DNA from: Candidatus Saccharimonadota bacterium
GTDB taxonomy: Bacteria > Patescibacteriota > Saccharimonadia > Saccharimonadales > AWTP1-31
Assembly: GCA_052034955.1 (NCBI GenBank)
Contig: JBPOHZ010000015.1
Coordinates: 26,998-90,997, forward strand
Length of the DNA: 64,000 nucleotides
Direction: 5' to 3'
This document shows positions 2,917-54,731 of the stretch, piece by piece. A program made the translations under genes and the position numbers. Position 1 is the first letter of the stretch; every line of letters starts with the position of its first letter. The notes below the pieces were generated by a model. The model saw only the letters and a list, made by a program, of their open reading frames with translations, searched no databases and had not been told where the DNA came from.

Positions 2917-4029
2917 TTAACCCCTCGCCTTAGATGCTAGATAACTTTCTCGAAGTTTTGGGTCTACCAGCCACGGGGCATCTGGTCTCACCCCAGCAGT
3001 TTCACAAGCTTGCTTCCATGTATCCGGGTCTAGGCTTCCAGAATGAGCATCAATGAATCGACCAAGCTCAACCATCCTCGAGCTATGTGAGCCATTGCCA
3101 ATTCCACCAATTGGCTCCTGAACGTAACCGATATGCTTAGGGTCTATGGTTTCAACCTCACCCTGCAAGGGGTGCTCGGTAGTCAGCCAGATGTCAGGAT
3201 ATTTTGGGTATACTTCAGCTAATATGGTTGCAAACTCTTCAGGTTCCCACGTATATAGATCGCAGCTATCGTAGTCATGCGCCTCCGTCTTGGTGAGCAT
3301 GGATAATTTCCTTTCTGCCGCCATAGCATAAACTTCTTCAATAAATAACTGTGCGTGTTCACTTTTCTCGGGTGTTGATAGATCAAGAGACAAATAAAAT
3401 TTATGCCGGTCAAATGGCCGTTCCACTACAAGGTCTGCGACCTCAGACCCTGTTTCCCATGCTTGAGAAAAGCCATTTTTGCCAGGTATCACCTTGCCGT
3501 CGTGATTTGCCCTACGATAACGATTGGTGAATAAAGCTCTTGGTTTCAGATTGTTACTATCCAAGCCACCTTGTTGTGAACCGCCAAAAGCAGACGAGAA
3601 TCCAATTCTCTTGGCGGATTCAACTAATGTGCTGCGTGATAACTTTGTTAGTAGAGCTTCTGGTGAGCCCTCGCCCGTCATGCTGGTACCTTCAAGTAAC
3701 GAGGGTCCAGATGGTTCAGGTGAAGTCACTTCACCAGATTTTTCTGTGCGAATCATCCTACTTACAACCCTAGAAGGACGACTTTCGGATACTCCCACTG
3801 TGCTCGTACCGCGGCCCATACTATTACGCACGCGTGAAACTGGTGCGACAGGTGTTTCATCAACAGTATCAAGTTCTGCAGTTGCATCAACCGGAACTTC
3901 ACCAATAACTTCTGCTTCCTCCGGGCTAATAGTCTCTACACTTGCTTCTGATGTAGCTTCACTCACGCTGCGACGCATGCTACTGCGCACGCGTGAAACT
4001 GGTTCTGTGGATGTTGTCTTTGGTTCCAT
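2917..4029 (-). CDS. hypothetical protein with an N-terminal Ser/Thr/Arg-rich disordered region carrying an internal tandem repeat (PVSRVRxSMxR)
   Basis: Long ORF with a non-low-complexity C-terminal half. The DNA repeat cgcacgcgtgaaactggt occurs twice (about 3828 and 3985). Lies next to the replication-relaxation gene and the transposase. Confidence 0.5.
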   Translation of the reverse strand: MEPKTTSTEPVSRVRSSMRRSVSEATSEASVETISPEEAEVIGEVPVDATAELDTVDETPVAPVSRVRNSMGRGTSTVGVSESRPSRVVSRMIRTEKSGEVTSPEPSGPSLLEGTSMTGEGSPEALLTKLSRSTLVESAKRIGFSSAFGGSQQGGLDSNNLKPRALFTNRYRRANHDGKVIPGKNGFSQAWETGSEVADLVVERPFDRHKFYLSLDLSTPEKSEHAQLFIEEVYAMAAERKLSMLTKTEAHDYDSCDLYTWEPEEFATILAEVYPKYPDIWLTTEHPLQGEVETIDPKHIGYVQEPIGGIGNGSHSSRMVELGRFIDAHSGSLDPDTWKQACETAGVRPDAPWLVDPKLRESYLASKARG

Positions 4030-18726: not shown

Positions 18727-20862
18727 TTGTCTACAATCAACCCATACGGAAAAGACATAATTAAAGTAGAGACCGAACTTTGTGGTAAAACACTTAGCCT
18801 AGAAGTCGGACGAGTTGGCTTTAGAACTAGCGCTAGCGTCATCGTACGATACGGTGAAACTGTAATCCTAGGAACAGCCATGGTTGGCAGTAAGCCACTC
18901 GCAGGATTCGACTATTTCCCCCTAAGCATTGATTACGAAGAAAAAATGTATGCAGCTGGTAAAATCAGCGGCTCCAGGTTTATTAAAAGAGAGGGTCGCC
19001 CAAGTGAGGACGCCATTTTGATCGGACGTCTTATCGACCGTCCAATTCGACCACTGTGGCCAAAAGGTTACCGTCACGAAGTACAAGGTGTAGCAACTGT
19101 ACTAAGCATGGACCCAACCTTCCGCCCAGATATGGTAGCCATGATCGCCATGAGCACAGCCTTTATGATGACTGGTGCACCATACGAAGGTCCAATTGCT
19201 GGACTCCGTATTGGAATCAAGGATGATGAATTTGTAGCTTTTGCCGATGCCGATACCTATGATAACGGAGAATTAGACCTAGTAGTCGCCGGAACCAAAG
19301 ATGCCGTCATGATGGTAGAAGCTGGTGCCAACGAAGTTTCCGAAGAAAAGGTAGTAGAAGGAATCGCCTTTGCTCACAAAGCAATGCAGCCAGCTATTAA
19401 AGCTCAAGAAGACCTTATTAAACAGCTCAAAGTAGAAAAACTAGAATTCGAACTTAGTCTGCCAGACGAAGACATCCAAAAACGGGTTAACACTTGGGTA
19501 GAGGGCAAGCTAGGCGCAGGACTTCGCAGCCCTTACCCAGAGCGTAACGAAATGGTAAACAAGCTTCGACACGAAATGGAAGCTCACTTTAAAGAAGAAC
19601 TAGGCGAAGACGCCTACAAAGATCTCCGTCAGGAATATGACGATGCTCTTACTTCTGCAATTCATAAAGACGTTCGAAAAGGCATTATCGAAGAAGGCCT
19701 ACGACCAGACGGACGTAAAATGGACGAAATCCGACAACTCTCTTCGGAAGTAAGCTTATTACCAAGAGCTCATGGATCAAGCTTATTCACTCGTGGAATG
19801 ACTCAGGCGATGAACATTGTCACTCTAGCCCCACTTAGCTATGCTCAGATGATCGACACCATGGAGCGTGACACCGAAAAGCGCTACATGCACCACTACA
19901 ACGCTCCTGGTTACACTGTTGGTGAAATCAAGCGTCTTGGTTCACCTGGTCGCCGAGAAATCGGCCACAGCGCATTAGCTGAGCGAGCACTACTACCAGT
20001 TATCCCAGCAGAAGCTGACTTCCCATATACCATTCGTTCAGTAACAGAGATTATGAGTCAAAATGGTAGCACCAGCATGGCTGCAACTTGTTCTAGTACC
20101 TTGGCACTACTCGATGCTGGCGTTCCACTTATTCGTCCAGTTAGCGGAATTGCTATGGGCTTAATGTTAGACGGCGATAAGCCAGTTATTCTTTCCGACA
20201 TCGCAGACGCCGAAGACTTTGCTGGCGACATGGACTTTAAAGTTACTGGAACCACCAAAGGTATTACCGCTCTTCAAATGGACATGAAGGTCCATGGACT
20301 TCCAGTAGAGACTTTAGCCAAAGCTCTTGCCGAAGGTAAAATTGGTCGAGCAAAAATTCTTGACCACATGATGAGTGTTAAAAGCGAAGCTGGAAAGATG
20401 AGCCCATACGCTCCACGCGTCGAAGCAATAACCATCAATCCAGACAAGATTCGCGAAGTTATCGGAAAGGGCGGAGAAGTGATCCAAAAGATTACTGGCG
20501 AAACCGGTGCCGAAATCGACATCAAGGATGACGGAACCATTATGATCGCCAGCCCAGATGGCGACAGCATCGAAGCTGCCAAGAAGTGGATCATGGCGAT
20601 TGTGGCCGAACCAGAAGTAGGCAAGATCTACCAAGATGTTCCAGTCATGACCGTTATGGACTTTGGTGCATTCGTTCAGATCATGCCTGGTAAAGACGGG
20701 CTAGTTCATGTATCCGAAATGAGCGAAGAACGCGTCGAAAAGCCATCTGATGTAGTAAAAGAAGGCGATCGAGTAACAGTTAAACTTGTTGCCATCGACG
20801 ACCGTGGACGACTACAATTAAGCATGAAGGCTGCCGCCCGAGAGCTGAAAGACAAGAAATAA
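18727..20862 (+). CDS. pnp: polynucleotide phosphorylase
   Basis: TTG start after a GAGGAG Shine-Dalgarno. Two RNase PH domains, a KH domain (KIREVIGKGG) and a C-terminal S1 domain. Confidence 0.95.
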   Translation: MSTINPYGKDIIKVETELCGKTLSLEVGRVGFRTSASVIVRYGETVILGTAMVGSKPLAGFDYFPLSIDYEEKMYAAGKISGSRFIKREGRPSEDAILIGRLIDRPIRPLWPKGYRHEVQGVATVLSMDPTFRPDMVAMIAMSTAFMMTGAPYEGPIAGLRIGIKDDEFVAFADADTYDNGELDLVVAGTKDAVMMVEAGANEVSEEKVVEGIAFAHKAMQPAIKAQEDLIKQLKVEKLEFELSLPDEDIQKRVNTWVEGKLGAGLRSPYPERNEMVNKLRHEMEAHFKEELGEDAYKDLRQEYDDALTSAIHKDVRKGIIEEGLRPDGRKMDEIRQLSSEVSLLPRAHGSSLFTRGMTQAMNIVTLAPLSYAQMIDTMERDTEKRYMHHYNAPGYTVGEIKRLGSPGRREIGHSALAERALLPVIPAEADFPYTIRSVTEIMSQNGSTSMAATCSSTLALLDAGVPLIRPVSGIAMGLMLDGDKPVILSDIADAEDFAGDMDFKVTGTTKGITALQMDMKVHGLPVETLAKALAEGKIGRAKILDHMMSVKSEAGKMSPYAPRVEAITINPDKIREVIGKGGEVIQKITGETGAEIDIKDDGTIMIASPDGDSIEAAKKWIMAIVAEPEVGKIYQDVPVMTVMDFGAFVQIMPGKDGLVHVSEMSEERVEKPSDVVKEGDRVTVKLVAIDDRGRLQLSMKAAARELKDKK

Positions 20863-20868
20863 TAAGGA

Positions 20869-21135
20869 GTGGGAATGGCAAAAGCTAAAGTAAGTAAAAA
20901 AGCAGTAAATCAGGTATCTAAACATCAGTTGAGGGTAGCGCACATAATTATGTTAGTGCTTGGCTTTATGATTACTTGGTCTGGCTTTGACAGTATAAGA
21001 ACTGTAGTTGACTCGGGAATAAAATACTCCCCAGACTGGCAAGTTCCTGCCTATATGGTTTTATTTGGAGGCGCCATTATCGGCGTAGCTATAAATGGTT
21101 TGGCAACCCTAAAGAAGAACGATGGCAAAAAGTAA
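20869..21135 (+). CDS. small two-TM membrane protein, paralog 1 of 3
   Basis: Basic N-terminus, two hydrophobic helices, C-terminal GKK; overlaps the next gene. Confidence 0.5.
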   Translation: MGMAKAKVSKKAVNQVSKHQLRVAHIIMLVLGFMITWSGFDSIRTVVDSGIKYSPDWQVPAYMVLFGGAIIGVAINGLATLKKNDGKK

Positions 21136-21334
21136 CGCACCCGAGATACAACAGAGCATTCGTATAGCTAGGGTTGTTCTAGGCTTACTTATTATCCTGT
21201 TTCCGATCTCATTAGTTTACGCAATAATTAACCCCAATGTAGGCAATTTTGTATCGGTAGCAATTGACGGGCTTTTTATAGCTGGCGAAATATTAACGCT
21301 AAGGCATTTGGAGCGAGCTCATGGCAAAAAGTAA
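21122..21334 (+). CDS. small two-TM membrane protein, paralog 2 of 3
   Basis: Starts MAKSN inside the shared 14-nt junction ATGGCAAAAAGTAA; ends HGKK. Confidence 0.5.
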   Translation: MAKSNAPEIQQSIRIARVVLGLLIILFPISLVYAIINPNVGNFVSVAIDGLFIAGEILTLRHLERAHGKK

Positions 21335-21527
21335 ACAGCAACTAAAAGACATGCACGACAGCCGTAACGGCAAGCTAGCCTTTGGTGTTGTGGCTCTGAT
21401 TGCTGCTTGGTTAATGTTCCTACGAGCTACTCATACTGGTAGCCTGCAGCAATATGCCATGCTCATAGCCTTAACGGTATATGGCATTAACCGATTATTC
21501 AGAGCATTAATCCCAAAGAATGGATAA
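21321..21527 (+). CDS. small two-TM membrane protein, paralog 3 of 3
   Basis: Starts MAKSK from the identical 14-nt junction; two TM helices. Confidence 0.5.
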   Translation: MAKSKQQLKDMHDSRNGKLAFGVVALIAAWLMFLRATHTGSLQQYAMLIALTVYGINRLFRALIPKNG

Positions 21528-22098
21528 ACAGGCTCGGCTTGACCAGATCAAGGCAGATATCCTCGAGCAGAATATCTGTCCAGATTTGGCCAAGCAAGCC
21601 AATCAGCTGGTATTTGGTACCGGTAGCCCCGATGCAGAAGTCGTTTTTATCGGCGAAGCACCAGGCAAGAACGAAGATTTAAAAGGTGAACCTTTCGTGG
21701 GAGCTTCTGGCAAATTGCTGGACGAAATGCTGGCCAGTATCGGATTGAATCGTTCGCACATTTATATAACCAATATAGTAAAGTATCGCCCTCCGAAGAA
21801 TCGGGACCCATCCAATGAAGAGAAGGAGGCGTTCTTACCATTCTTGTACTCCCAGTTGGCAGCAATTAATCCTAAAGTCATAGTGACATTAGGTCGACAT
21901 AGTTCAAATTGCTTCCTACCGGGTTTACAAATAAGTGCCATTCATGGCCAAACCCAAACTGTAACAGTGAAACTGCAAAAAAAGTCGCTAAGCTGGAAGA
22001 TCTTGCCACTCTACCATCCGGCAGCTGCGCTTTATAACGGCAAACTTCGTCAAACATTGTTCGATGATTTCACTGCAATTACTAAGATTACAAAATAA
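21520..22098 (+). CDS. uracil-DNA glycosylase superfamily protein (family 4-like)
   Basis: Motif A GEAPGxxEDxxGxPFVGxSGxLL and motif B around HP...LYN. Confidence 0.75.
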   Translation: MDKQARLDQIKADILEQNICPDLAKQANQLVFGTGSPDAEVVFIGEAPGKNEDLKGEPFVGASGKLLDEMLASIGLNRSHIYITNIVKYRPPKNRDPSNEEKEAFLPFLYSQLAAINPKVIVTLGRHSSNCFLPGLQISAIHGQTQTVTVKLQKKSLSWKILPLYHPAAALYNGKLRQTLFDDFTAITKITK

Positions 22099-22124
22099 TA
22101 TCTAAATAATTAGAAAGAAGGATT

Positions 22125-24257
22125 ATGAATCCAGAAACAACAAAACCAACTGGACCAACCGGTCCAAAGAAACCGAGTAACCGACCAGCTAATCAAGGCG
22201 GTCGACCTCAAAACAATAAAAATCCTAAAGCCGGCTCTAAAGCCCCAGCTATGGGTGGCCGCGGTGGTGCCTCTAGGGGTGCCGCTATGCGAGCTCAAAA
22301 GCGCAACCAAGACGATGCCCACAAGGCCGTCAGCGCATATTTACCAACCAACGATGCACCAAAGCGCGCTAACGTTATTGCCGATGACTTCGATAAGCTC
22401 AAGATTACTTTCTTGGGTGGACAAGACGGTATTGGCGAAAAGAACATGCAAGTTGTCGAATGGCAAAATGATGCCATCATCCTAGACTGTGGTAACAATC
22501 TAGGCCTTGAGCTTCCAGGAGTTAACTACTCAATCGCCGACACAACTTACCTAGAAACCATTAAACACAAGATTCGCGGCTACGTTATTAGTCACGGACA
22601 CCTTGATCACCTTGGTGGACTTAAGCACATCGTTCCAAAGTTCCCAGCTCCAATTTACGGATCGCTCTTTACATTAGGTGTCGTAACCAAGACATTCGAA
22701 GACATTGCTGCCGATACAGGTCTGGAGTTCGAGCCAAAACTAATGGCTATGAACATGGACAACCATGAACGACTTAAGCTAGGCGCGTTTACCCTAGAAT
22801 TAGTCCGAGTAACTCACTCCGTTCCAGAATCTAGCTTAATCGTAGTAGATACTCCAGTTGGACGAATCATCAACACCGGTGACTTCCGTCTCGACCCAGA
22901 ACCACTCGACCAAATGCCAAGTGATGTTAAGCGTCTAAAAGAACTAGGTGACGAAGGTGTTCTACTGCTTATGAGCGAAAGCACCTATACTCAGGTTCCG
23001 GGACGTCAGCCAACCGAAAGTACTCTGCAGCAGAGTTTCCACGATGTTGTAGGCCAGGCCGAAGGTCGTGTCTTTGTGGCAATTTTCTCTAGTAACATGA
23101 ACCGTGTTCAGATGATCGTAAATGCAGCTGTAGCTGCCGGTCGTCGAGTAGCCCTAGATGGTCGAAGTATGATGAGCTACGCCGAAATTGCAGTCCGACA
23201 GGGAATTCTTAAGATCCCTAAGGGTACCGTGCTTGCGATGCGTGAAATGCCAAACATTCCACCAGAGCAGGTACTTGTTATCTGTACCGGTGGACAGGGT
23301 GAGCCAAACGCTGCCATGCAACGTATGGCCGAAGGTACTCACAAGCACATTAAGTTGCAGCCAAAAGATACCGTCATTGTTAGCTCCAACCCAATTCCGG
23401 GTAACGAGATTCGCTACCAGCAGATCGGTGACGACCTATCCAAATTAGGTGTTCATTTGTATCAGCACCCAAGTCACGAAGTAGATGGCTGTGGACCACT
23501 GCACGTTGGTGGACACGCTCGTCGCGAAGAGCACCGCGAGATGATCAACATGCTCAAGCCCAAGTTCTTTGCTCCTATTTATGCCGGTGCACGTAACCGT
23601 ACTTACCACATGGAGATGGCTATCGAAGAGGGTATTGCCCGCAAAGATATCATTATGGCTGGTAACGGCGAAACCGTATTACTGTCAGAAGACAAATGGG
23701 AAATGGGTCCTGAGGCTCCAAGTGGAAGCGTATTAGTTGACCAGTCTGGCTCAGTTGTAAGTGGAATCGTGGTCAAAGACCGTATTATGTTGAGCGAGGA
23801 AGGTCTTGTGGCCGTCATCTTGACCATCGACAAACGAACCGGTCAGTTAGCTACAAGTCCAGATATCATTAGCCGAGGCTTCATCTACATGAGAGACTCA
23901 GAAGAGTTAATGAACAACTTCCGTACCGAACTACGCCGAGCTGTTGCTCAGCGATTTAAGCGTGTCGACCTCGATCGCTTTAAGGCAGAATTACGTGATC
24001 ACATCACACATTTCTTGTATGAACACACGCAGCGAAGCCCAATTGTCATACCAGTAGTAAACGTTATTTCTGGAGGTAAGCAAGGCGAATCAAAGGGTGG
24101 CAAGCCAAATGGTCCGGCCCAAGCCTCTAATGGTCAACACCCACTAGAAGCCGCTGCACCAGAACCAGTAACTCCAGAAGAGCAGGCTGCCGACATGCAG
24201 AAGCGTTTCCAAGAAATGCGCGAAAAACTCCTTGGCCACGACTCCTTGGCTGAGTAA
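22125..24257 (+). CDS. rnj: ribonuclease J with an approximately 80-aa basic Gly/Arg-rich N-terminal extension
   Basis: Metallo-beta-lactamase HGHLDHLGG, a beta-CASP domain, and an RNase J C-terminal domain. Confidence 0.9.
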   Translation: MNPETTKPTGPTGPKKPSNRPANQGGRPQNNKNPKAGSKAPAMGGRGGASRGAAMRAQKRNQDDAHKAVSAYLPTNDAPKRANVIADDFDKLKITFLGGQDGIGEKNMQVVEWQNDAIILDCGNNLGLELPGVNYSIADTTYLETIKHKIRGYVISHGHLDHLGGLKHIVPKFPAPIYGSLFTLGVVTKTFEDIAADTGLEFEPKLMAMNMDNHERLKLGAFTLELVRVTHSVPESSLIVVDTPVGRIINTGDFRLDPEPLDQMPSDVKRLKELGDEGVLLLMSESTYTQVPGRQPTESTLQQSFHDVVGQAEGRVFVAIFSSNMNRVQMIVNAAVAAGRRVALDGRSMMSYAEIAVRQGILKIPKGTVLAMREMPNIPPEQVLVICTGGQGEPNAAMQRMAEGTHKHIKLQPKDTVIVSSNPIPGNEIRYQQIGDDLSKLGVHLYQHPSHEVDGCGPLHVGGHARREEHREMINMLKPKFFAPIYAGARNRTYHMEMAIEEGIARKDIIMAGNGETVLLSEDKWEMGPEAPSGSVLVDQSGSVVSGIVVKDRIMLSEEGLVAVILTIDKRTGQLATSPDIISRGFIYMRDSEELMNNFRTELRRAVAQRFKRVDLDRFKAELRDHITHFLYEHTQRSPIVIPVVNVISGGKQGESKGGKPNGPAQASNGQHPLEAAAPEPVTPEEQAADMQKRFQEMREKLLGHDSLAE

Positions 24258-28822: not shown

Positions 28823-29101
28823 GTGAATATGGCAGGAGTAGAGAACGAACCAGTATGGTTGTCGGGCATGAGCTTACCGCAGAGAGTTAAGGGCTTAATG
28901 GCACTGGACTCAAAAGGTATAAGTCCTGAAAGTGCTACAACGCAGCTTACAAAGACAGAAGAAGATGGAACAACATTAACTATCCCAGTGCGAAGGATTC
29001 CACTTATTGATATTGGATATCCAACTCAGGATGCGGCAGATGATGCGATACTGAGAGCTATGGGATATGAACCAGGAGATAACAATGGCAAAGATATTTA
29101 A
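28823..29101 (+). CDS. hypothetical protein
   Basis: ORF with an AAGGAG Shine-Dalgarno 4 nt after the ssb stop. Confidence 0.4.
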   Translation: MNMAGVENEPVWLSGMSLPQRVKGLMALDSKGISPESATTQLTKTEEDGTTLTIPVRRIPLIDIGYPTQDAADDAILRAMGYEPGDNNGKDI

Positions 29102-53808: not shown

Positions 53809-54498
53809 TTATTGTTCAAAACTCATCCCGAAGTCGGGATTAATACCATCGGACTCTATAATTTCTTCAGGAAGTTCACGGACTTGATCAAGCATCTCAA
53901 CGTTGATATTTTTAACATAACTTCTGTCTTTTTCCTGCGAAGTAATCCTTAAATATTCATATAGATTTTCGTTTGTTAAGGGCACATACCCATCCTCAAC
54001 AAGCTGCACGGCAAGGGGGTTGTCGTTTGAAACACCCGAACTAAAGTTTGGTGATCCTGCCCACTGCAGTGTTCCGTCTTCACCTAGGAATTGCCCGAAA
54101 GTAACGTCAGCCAAGAATTTTTCACCGTCAATGGTTAGGAGGTTAAATCCATGCTGGAATGCTTCTGGGTATCTATTGCCCGAAGCCAGGGAATGTAAAT
54201 CCAGAAGTTGAACCTTCTTGCTAACTGCATCAAAACCATCACGTTGACTTTGGTCATTTAATACATATCCAAGGATATCTGGCCCTAAGTTACAATCTCC
54301 CCACATTCTGGTGGATCTGCTATCGGAATTACCTCTGGCAACCCAGCCTCTTTCAAATCGCTCGATCACATTTTCAAGTCTTGCGCTAGGTGTTGGTTCC
54401 TGTTCTAGGCCGTCAATCATTGCTCTGGCAAACATCTTGGCATGTTCTTCCGGTAATCTAGCTGTAGGGTCGGTAATATAGGACTGTTGCTCGGTCAT
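53809..54498 (-). CDS. hypothetical protein
   Basis: ORF; translationally coupled (4-nt overlap) with the upstream small membrane protein. Confidence 0.45.
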   Translation of the reverse strand: MTEQQSYITDPTARLPEEHAKMFARAMIDGLEQEPTPSARLENVIERFERGWVARGNSDSRSTRMWGDCNLGPDILGYVLNDQSQRDGFDAVSKKVQLLDLHSLASGNRYPEAFQHGFNLLTIDGEKFLADVTFGQFLGEDGTLQWAGSPNFSSGVSNDNPLAVQLVEDGYVPLTNENLYEYLRITSQEKDRSYVKNINVEMLDQVRELPEEIIESDGINPDFGMSFEQ

Positions 54499-54731
54499 TT
54501 CTGGCTACTTTTTCGGTTAGCGATAAAAGTGATCACTGTTGCTGCAGCTATCCAGTTAGGCACTATGAATAGAACTGCTTCACCGGGCGATGATGTTGTA
54601 TTCATGCCAAGTATCATTGCAAACACTACGTACCCTACAAATATTGCGTAGACAACATAGCCCGCCTTACTAGAGGGGAGGAAACTGCCACGAACCGGCC
54701 TAAACCACGTAACTTTTGTTTTTCTTGCCAT
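54495..54731 (-). CDS. small membrane protein
   Basis: Two TM helices. Confidence 0.4.
   Translation of the reverse strand: MARKTKVTWFRPVRGSFLPSSKAGYVVYAIFVGYVVFAMILGMNTTSSPGEAVLFIVPNWIAAATVITFIANRKSSQK

Follow-up and report, generated by a model that had tools for sequence, protein, structure and literature searches.

An islet of small overlapping membrane-protein genes sharing a 14-nt junction between pnp and a UDG gene in Saccharibacteria

Introduction

Are small neighbouring genes that are joined by an identical stretch of DNA copies of one another, or can unrelated genes come to share a junction? CPR genomes, including those of Saccharibacteria, encode many unannotated small membrane proteins. 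Three of them lie between pnp and a UDG gene in the 64-kb stretch of DNA analysed here (the window), and both of their junctions use the same 14 nucleotides. The initial annotation of the window read these genes as a recent tandem triplication of one two-TM protein, probably translated in a coupled manner, and listed holin/antiholin-like, toxin-like and stress membrane proteins as candidate functions. Our search of the literature on the pnp-UDG locus and on small-protein islets in Saccharibacteria found nothing specific.

Results

The sequence and ORF list showed that pnp and a family-4 UDG gene flank three head-to-tail ORFs on the plus strand, here called A, B and C (Table 1), and that the interval from pnp to UDG is free of untranslated gaps. 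Hydropathy analysis identified two hydrophobic segments in each product, which in A span approximately residues 17-41 and 55-80 and are followed by the tail KKNDGKK. The presence of three small two-TM ORFs on one strand was thereby corroborated. Their lengths had been given as 88, 70 and 68 aa, and the latter two stand; the first gene most likely starts at ATG 20875 rather than at the listed GTG 20869, because this GTG sits within the Shine-Dalgarno (SD) sequence at 20864-20869, and its predicted product is then 86 aa. A common protein design had also been proposed. The MAK start and the two helices are indeed common to all three, with ends that range from neutral to net positive, but the (G)KK C-terminus applies to A and B only, as C ends in KNG. 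The N-terminal tails carry net charges of +5 (A), 0 (B) and +2 (C), the C-terminal tails +2 to +3, and the loops are neutral. By the positive-inside rule, a topology with both termini in the cytoplasm would fit all three proteins best.

The relative of pnp in locus L084 carries RNase_PH, KH and S1 Pfam domains. No plus-strand terminator was found from pnp to rnj, the sites returned by promoter and terminator scans did not exceed chance expectation, and an Rfam scan of 20000-22500 found nothing relevant. Elsewhere in the window, the minus strand at 54495-54731 holds a 78-aa two-helix ORF (MARKTKVT...RKSSQK) that has a 4-nt overlap with its neighbour and no Pfam match.

Table 1. Features of the pnp-UDG interval and its flanks in the window
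Feature	Position	Strand	Description and basis
pnp (polynucleotide phosphorylase)	18727..20862	+	Upstream conserved flank; 711-aa ORF
Shine-Dalgarno AAGGAG for gene A	20864..20869	+	5 nt ahead of ATG 20875; read from sequence
Gene A	20875..21135	+	86-aa two-helix membrane protein, starts MAKAK; ORF list, hydropathy
Junction 1, ATGGCAAAAAGTAA	21122..21135	+	M-A-K-S-(N) of B / G-K-K-stop of A
Gene B	21122..21334	+	70-aa two-helix membrane protein, lineage-restricted; ORF list, dN/dS
GGAG, SD-like element for C	21310..21313	+	7 nt 5' of C ATG, within last codons of B
Junction 2, ATGGCAAAAAGTAA again	21321..21334	+	M-A-K-S-K of C / G-K-K-stop of B
Gene C	21321..21527	+	68-aa two-helix membrane protein, conserved family; family HMM
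Overlap of 8 nt, ATGGATAA	21520..21527	+	C stop / UDG start; sequence and ORF list
UDG-superfamily gene	21520..22098	+	Downstream conserved flank; Pfam PF03167, E 2.7e-36

We used the UDG protein as a query to collect 80 loci, nearly all from Candidatus Saccharibacteria or Saccharimonadales; pnp lay upstream of UDG in 78 of 81 loci, at distances of 4 to 3285 nt. An HMM for the C family was iterated on ORFs within the pnp-UDG gaps and built from 50 loci, and it identified C of the window as a member (E 7e-22 to 1e-19). The family has a core of about 48 residues with the turn motif (S/L)(R/L)A(I/T)D(T/S/R)G(S/N)Lxx(Y/W), and the sequence RATHTGSLQQY at the helix turn of C fits the family pattern A-x-(D/H)-(T/S/R)-G-(S/N)-L-x-x-(Y/W). 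Once loci collected later had been added, members were present in 67 of 98 Saccharibacteria loci. All 68 matches lay between pnp and UDG on the same strand, and in 58 of these the gene ended at most 60 nt from the UDG start. The AlphaFold model of C is a helical hairpin (helices 15-39 and 42-63, turn 40-41, mean pLDDT 73), and dN/dS for C was 0.04-0.10. Neither Pfam nor NCBIfam has a model for the family, and no relative has a solved structure: Pfam searches with 48 members gave no family matched by more than five of them, and a PDB sequence search with the C profile returned designed repeat proteins only, which are meaningless.

Among 77 species-representative loci, the pnp-UDG interval held C alone in 35, C with another small TM gene in 7, C with other genes in 8, and other genes without C in 17, while pnp directly abutted UDG in 9 and the remaining locus had neither C nor an ORF. 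Three consecutive small membrane genes are at the high end among these representatives. Unrelated genes occupy the interval in loci L008, L016, L034, L046, L052, L066, L073, L079, L081 and L082; in L082 the gene encodes a GNAT acetyltransferase (Pfam), and elsewhere GNAT-, Nudix-, short-chain-dehydrogenase- and four-helix-bundle-like ORFs were recognised by eye. The interval resembles a general hot spot for insertions. The distant relative L013 has five consecutive mini ORFs of 47-75 aa before UDG (3108-4014), four of them two-helix and most ending in KK, which have the same overall design with 0-4-nt overlaps and different junction sequences. In the species-representative assembly L005 (3647-3860), a duplicated 55-nt stretch from the 5' end of C flanks a run of N; this resembles a scaffolding error that falls precisely on the repeated junction.

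A and B are orphans. Among 5.8 billion proteins, the sole match to A was itself, and A had no match among 12,371 ORFs of related loci. B had one relative in the same set of proteins, P0002 (93% identity), and a B profile recovered P0002 alone from 1.84 billion representatives. Comparison of B with its counterpart in L082 revealed 19 synonymous and 6 non-synonymous changes (dN/dS 0.07, dS 0.53), which indicates that B is under strong purifying selection. The corresponding dN/dS values for two small genes of relatives, D and E, were 0.18 and 0.155. Codon usage scored 0.36 bits per codon for A, 0.28 for B and 0.27 for C, compared with 0.38 +/- 0.15 for the long genes of the window, and was coding-like in the annotated frame only, the other five frames being negative. 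The status of the three ORFs as coding sequence is thus upheld, by purifying selection relative to relatives for B and C, and for A by its SD sequence, codon usage and ORF length, which argue that it is a real gene. The gene calls on record for the strain (the NCBI record and the identical Logan contig L001) list A and C and lack B, which is an annotation gap. Exact-sequence look-ups of the UDG gene, A and C of the window found one identical Logan contig only.

If A, B and C were copies of one gene, their similarity should extend beyond the junctions. BLASTP found no match in any pair of the three proteins, and Smith-Waterman scores did not stand out from those of shuffled sequences (A-B p = 0.08, A-C p = 0.26, B-C p = 0.66). 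The C-family profile scored A at 0.9 bits and B at -0.2 bits, so neither is a member. At the DNA level, nothing within 20700-21700 was repeated except the 14-mer. HMMs of B, G and E gave no significant cross-match, and the same was true among the small-gene families of the relatives' arrays. The initial annotation had proposed a survey of related genomes for copy-number variation at this locus; instead of varying numbers of one family, the slots hold mutually unrelated genes (B, D, E, F, G and GNAT). A and B vary independently in their presence in relatives, and D, E, G and GNAT fill the same slots. With no protein similarity above chance, no DNA repeat beyond the 14-mer and unrelated genes in the slots of relatives, tandem triplication by recent duplication was not supported, and the comparisons indicate that A, B and C are unrelated small genes rather than copies of one another.

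Several more distant relationships were considered. Residues 1-42 of B matched residues 1-37 of D from L083 with E 7e-5, but a B profile matched D with only E 0.03. A scored 8.5 bits (E 1.2) against a profile of the C-terminal half of D. The idea that A is a truncated D could not be established: the two share their first 17 nt, last 23 nt and position, but profile scores reached only 2.8 and 8.5 bits. A relationship between B and G of L099 was suggested by one pairwise test (E 2e-4, z 4.6), but neither the L100 copy nor HMMs confirmed it, and we therefore do not claim that gene order was shuffled between D-G-C and B-D-C.

An exact-match search found ATGGCAAAAAGTAA twice in the 64-kb window, at 21122 and 21321, where 0.07 copies were expected and none of 100 shuffles gave at least two, confirming that both junctions share an identical 14 nt. 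The 5' end of gene A, ATGGCAAAAGCTAA, is 12/14 identical to this sequence. All 14 bases are fixed because they must encode both M-A-K-S and, in a frame that begins one base earlier, G-K-K-stop; under the genetic code, any third codon position in either frame falls on position one or two of a codon in the other, so that every base is constrained. The identity of the copies is therefore uninformative about their age.

Comparison with relatives showed with which gene the motif travels. C of the window and C of L089 share only 74.5% DNA identity and have saturated dS, yet 14/14 of their start bases are the same; L089 and L091 have the identical 14-mer at the C start, whereas that of L084 has one base changed. 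The start of B in L082 and L083 has the same 14-mer, though the upstream GNAT gene does not overlap it, and the motif is also found at the start of D directly after pnp, with nothing overlapping. In 694 kb of Saccharibacteria loci, ATGG[CT]AAAA[AG]NTAA matched only the starts of A, B, C and D genes of the sub-clade, plus one stray match. Almost all small genes in the arrays of this sub-clade begin with the motif, and the preceding gene terminates within it. The gene before C, whether B, D, E or G, extends into the C start region and in almost all arrays stops at the embedded TAA, producing the tail (H/N)GK(K/Q); the tail of A is DGKK. The exception is L091, in which the D-C overlap is a single base. 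Unrelated upstream genes end alike because the motif holds this TAA one base out of frame. The GGAG ahead of C is conserved within the tails of other genes: B in the window, E in L084 and L091, and G in L099. These patterns show that the motif is a property of the 5' end of the downstream gene, with the GKK C-terminus as its by-product. Separately, 12-14 nt at the 3' end of pnp (20784-20797, ACTTGTTGCCATCG) are 92-93% complementary to the junction copies at 21120-21133 and 21321-21332, which could be chance or long-range mRNA pairing.

The arrays could be compared in a handful of close relatives, mostly on short contigs. A-B-C in the window corresponds to GNAT-B-D-C in L082 and L083, D-C in L089 and L090, E-C in L084-L088, E-D-C in L091, D-G-C in L099 and L100, and F-C in L092, where D encodes 150 aa (four-helix), E 105 aa, G 93 aa and F 65 aa. 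L084 and L091 are approximately 100% identical in pnp and in the stretch that begins with C and continues through UDG and RNase J, whereas identity drops to 77-88% across the last ~160 nt of pnp and E. D, present in L091 and absent from L084, is a 433-nt segment with GT(C/A)ATGG(C/T)AAAAAGTAA at both ends, and the E|C junction of L084 is an exact chimera of the left side of the L091 E|D junction, the motif, and the right side of the L091 D|C junction. Similarly, the B|C junction of the window combines the left side of L083 B|D, the motif and the right side of L083 D|C, and its A|B junction consists of a D-like tail (23 nt, 91% identical to L089), the motif and the body of B. The start of D in L089 and L090 shows homology to the leader of A and to the first 17 nt of the A ORF. 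When the window was compared with L082, dS came to 0.09 in pnp but to 0.53 in B and 0.55 in C (Fisher p about 1e-6), and homology ends at the pnp stop codon and resumes exactly at the B ATG.

Together these features form the signature expected when recombination between conserved flanks replaces an islet whose units are bounded by the motif, although we infer the mechanism. Replacement of the whole islet combined with selection for intact genes alone would likewise give breakpoints at gene starts, and the motif need not be a crossover site. Saccharibacteria are naturally competent (PMC10633639), so a route for islet exchange exists.

We then considered how such genes would be translated. In each case the upstream gene stops just past the start of the co-directional downstream gene, with overlaps of 14, 14 and 8 nt. 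Termination-reinitiation coupling requires overlaps or very short gaps, and among long overlaps the phase-1 class (-8, -11, -14) is favoured (PMC10666635). The proposal of translational coupling thus held up as plausible from geometry: each upstream gene of A-B-C stops 11 nt beyond the following ATG, B lacks a good SD, and no plus-strand terminator separates pnp from rnj. Against coupling, C has its own SD-like GGAG and A a strong SD, so that independent initiation could suffice, and a 14-nt overlap exceeds the canonical 4- or 1-nt overlaps. The overlaps found in the window are -1 (four times), -4 (three times), -8, -11, -14 (three times) and -17. In the -17 case (29085-29101), rpsR (S18, PF01084) starts ATGGCAAAG / ATGGCAAAGATATTTAA inside an upstream 90-aa ORF that ends ...NNGKDI. 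Since an overlap of MAK start and NGK stop also occurs at rpsR, and similar overlaps elsewhere in the window, the design belongs to the normal repertoire of this genome. What is unusual is the exact reuse of one junction by unrelated neighbouring genes.

Searches against Pfam, NCBIfam, PHROGs and PADLOC with A, B and C and with D and E of relatives gave nothing above curated cut-offs, only scattered weak TM matches, and the suggested holin/antiholin, toxin and stress-protein functions found no support in these collections. There was no PHROG match with a function at E 0.1 or better. We rejected a holin/antiholin role on this ground and because the neighbours are pnp, UDG and RNase J rather than phage genes. 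An anti-phage defence effector was rejected since A, B and C match no PADLOC model; D had a weak match to the '2TM effector' model (E 0.0065). An integron cassette was rejected because the boundaries are 14-17-nt coding overlaps, with no inverted repeat at the boundaries and no integrase gene from pnp to rnj.

Discussion

We propose, with a probability of roughly 60%, that this interval is a translationally coupled operon segment consisting of a conserved core gene, C, and swappable accessory minigenes. It would form a short, fast-changing islet within the conserved rpsO-pnp-...-udg-rnj string, encoding one conserved hairpin protein, C, along with the accessory hairpin proteins A and B, both restricted to the lineage. 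The 14-mer supplies the downstream ATG and M-A-K-S codons together with the out-of-frame TAA that ends the upstream gene. A ribosome ending the upstream ORF would be released 11 nt past the next ATG and could re-initiate there, so that the small proteins would be made in linked amounts. A common start module would also allow gene loss, gain or swap at the module with both frames intact, and exchange could proceed by recombination between short repeats or by whole-islet replacement via the conserved flanks.

The shared 14-mer would also be expected if it were the last trace of a young tandem triplication, and two exact copies and one near copy, spaced by 247 and 199 nt, are what first suggest this. 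We regard it as exceedingly improbable: outside these 14 nt there is no repeat, dual coding already fixes every base of them, orthologues with saturated dS retain them, and B with its 14-mer was already in the lineage at dS 0.53, beside different genes. The lack of extended DNA or protein similarity between the units refutes a recent event. An ancient duplication is a different matter, in which A, B and C, and also D, E and G, would derive from one two-helix minigene whose helices have diverged past recognition, the first five codons and the overlap having been frozen by dual coding and the needs of initiation. The common architecture, size, orientation and MAK(S/A/N)(K/N) start agree with this, as does the weak resemblance of the B N-terminus to that of the adjacent D in L083 (z 7.3 over the full length, 3.1 with the ends trimmed). 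In addition, the C-terminal half of D matches stand-alone 2-TM genes at this locus in L025 (E 3e-5) and L013 (E 0.026), which suggests that D may be a fusion of two minigenes. However, neither pairwise nor profile comparisons connect A, B and C, the B profile finds a single match (P0002) among all representatives, and the HMMs for B, G and E do not cross-match significantly. Small TM proteins diverge fast, so very old paralogy keeps some standing, but we consider it unlikely. Alternatively, C alone could be real, with A and/or B being chance spacer ORFs kept open by AT-rich composition. The absence of B from the called genes of the strain and the absence of a database family for A and B would fit. 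This is quite improbable in view of the excess of synonymous changes in B, the in-frame codon scores of both genes, the canonical AAGGAG placed 5 nt before the A ATG, and the lack of any untranslated gap from pnp to UDG.

Two further readings concern the junction itself. The run of five A's (21127-21131 and 21326-21330) might be a programmed +1 slippage site that yields A-B, B-C or A-B-C fusions with four or six helices. By sequence logic, a tRNA-Lys on the upstream codons GGC AAA AAG TAA could slip by +1 from AAA to the next AAA and enter the downstream frame; such a fusion would make topological sense, since two cytoplasmic ends would be joined, and relatives have the four-helix gene D (150 aa) at the same locus. 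We nevertheless judge slippage very improbable, because no stimulatory element was identified, five A's are a short tract, and the variants ATGGCAAATAAG and ATGGCAAACAATAAG in relatives shorten the A run while keeping the overlap. A bolder form of the coupled-segment proposal takes the 14-17-nt module for a universal connector, at which minigenes are inserted, deleted and moved by recombination and thereby gain coupled translation and an upstream stop. We advance this only tentatively and hold it to be doubtful. If true, it would amount to an integrase-free, in-frame cassette system through which strains of a naturally competent epibiont that are otherwise identical come to differ in their tiny membrane proteins, perhaps under diversifying selection by hosts or phages.

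Parts of the proposed coupled segment resemble known systems. Coupled overlapping gene pairs (Huber et al. 2019, 2023; PMC6728339, PMC10666635) are likewise co-directional, with a stop just past the downstream start; the phase-1 overlaps seen here (-14, -14, -8) are their favoured long class, and such pairs often encode subunits of one complex. Here, by contrast, the overlap is longer than the dominant -4/-1 classes, the 14-nt junction is reused by unrelated genes, and the coupling is putative. Replacement-type flexible genomic islands, such as O-antigen and capsule loci, share the near-identical flanks and the divergent, content-variable middle; the group studied here is naturally competent (PMC10633639). 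Unlike them, the islet is tiny (0.2-1.3 kb), holds only mini membrane proteins and occasional GNAT-type genes, and sits within an operon without intergenic space, with a 14-17-nt motif shared by the unit boundaries. Integron cassette arrays are also one-directional strings of small, unrelated, swappable ORFs with a recurring boundary. However, the locus has no integrase gene between or beside the flanking genes and no attC-like imperfect hairpin; its boundary is a 14-nt coding overlap, and its cassettes would owe their translation to putative coupling and not just to a shared Pc promoter. Class II holins, antiholins and small type I toxins resemble A, B and C in being 60-90 aa with two hydrophobic helices and lysine-rich ends. 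They differ in that the locus has no phage, endolysin or antisense-RNA context and no PHROG, PADLOC, Pfam or NCBIfam match, and C is conserved across the order in a housekeeping operon.

Members of a single complex are frequently encoded by coupled pairs. The simplest functional guess is that A and B may be accessory membrane partners of C; for the three proteins together, our best guess is a role as subunits or modulators within a small inner-membrane complex around C.

The kinds of arrangement involved, overlapping coupled genes and a replacement-type variable islet, are already known. What stands out is a dual-coding junction that is common to unrelated minigenes and coincides with indel breakpoints. 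C is a conserved small protein that can be named and studied across the order, and the locus is a compact example of orphan minigenes under real selection. Its junction design shows unrelated genes sharing putative coupled translation and exchangeable between near-identical strains. Cultivated Saccharibacteria are transformable, so that both the coupling and the role of C are directly testable. If the junction is a crossover site, the locus would show how small genes can plug into an existing operon without promoters or spacers.
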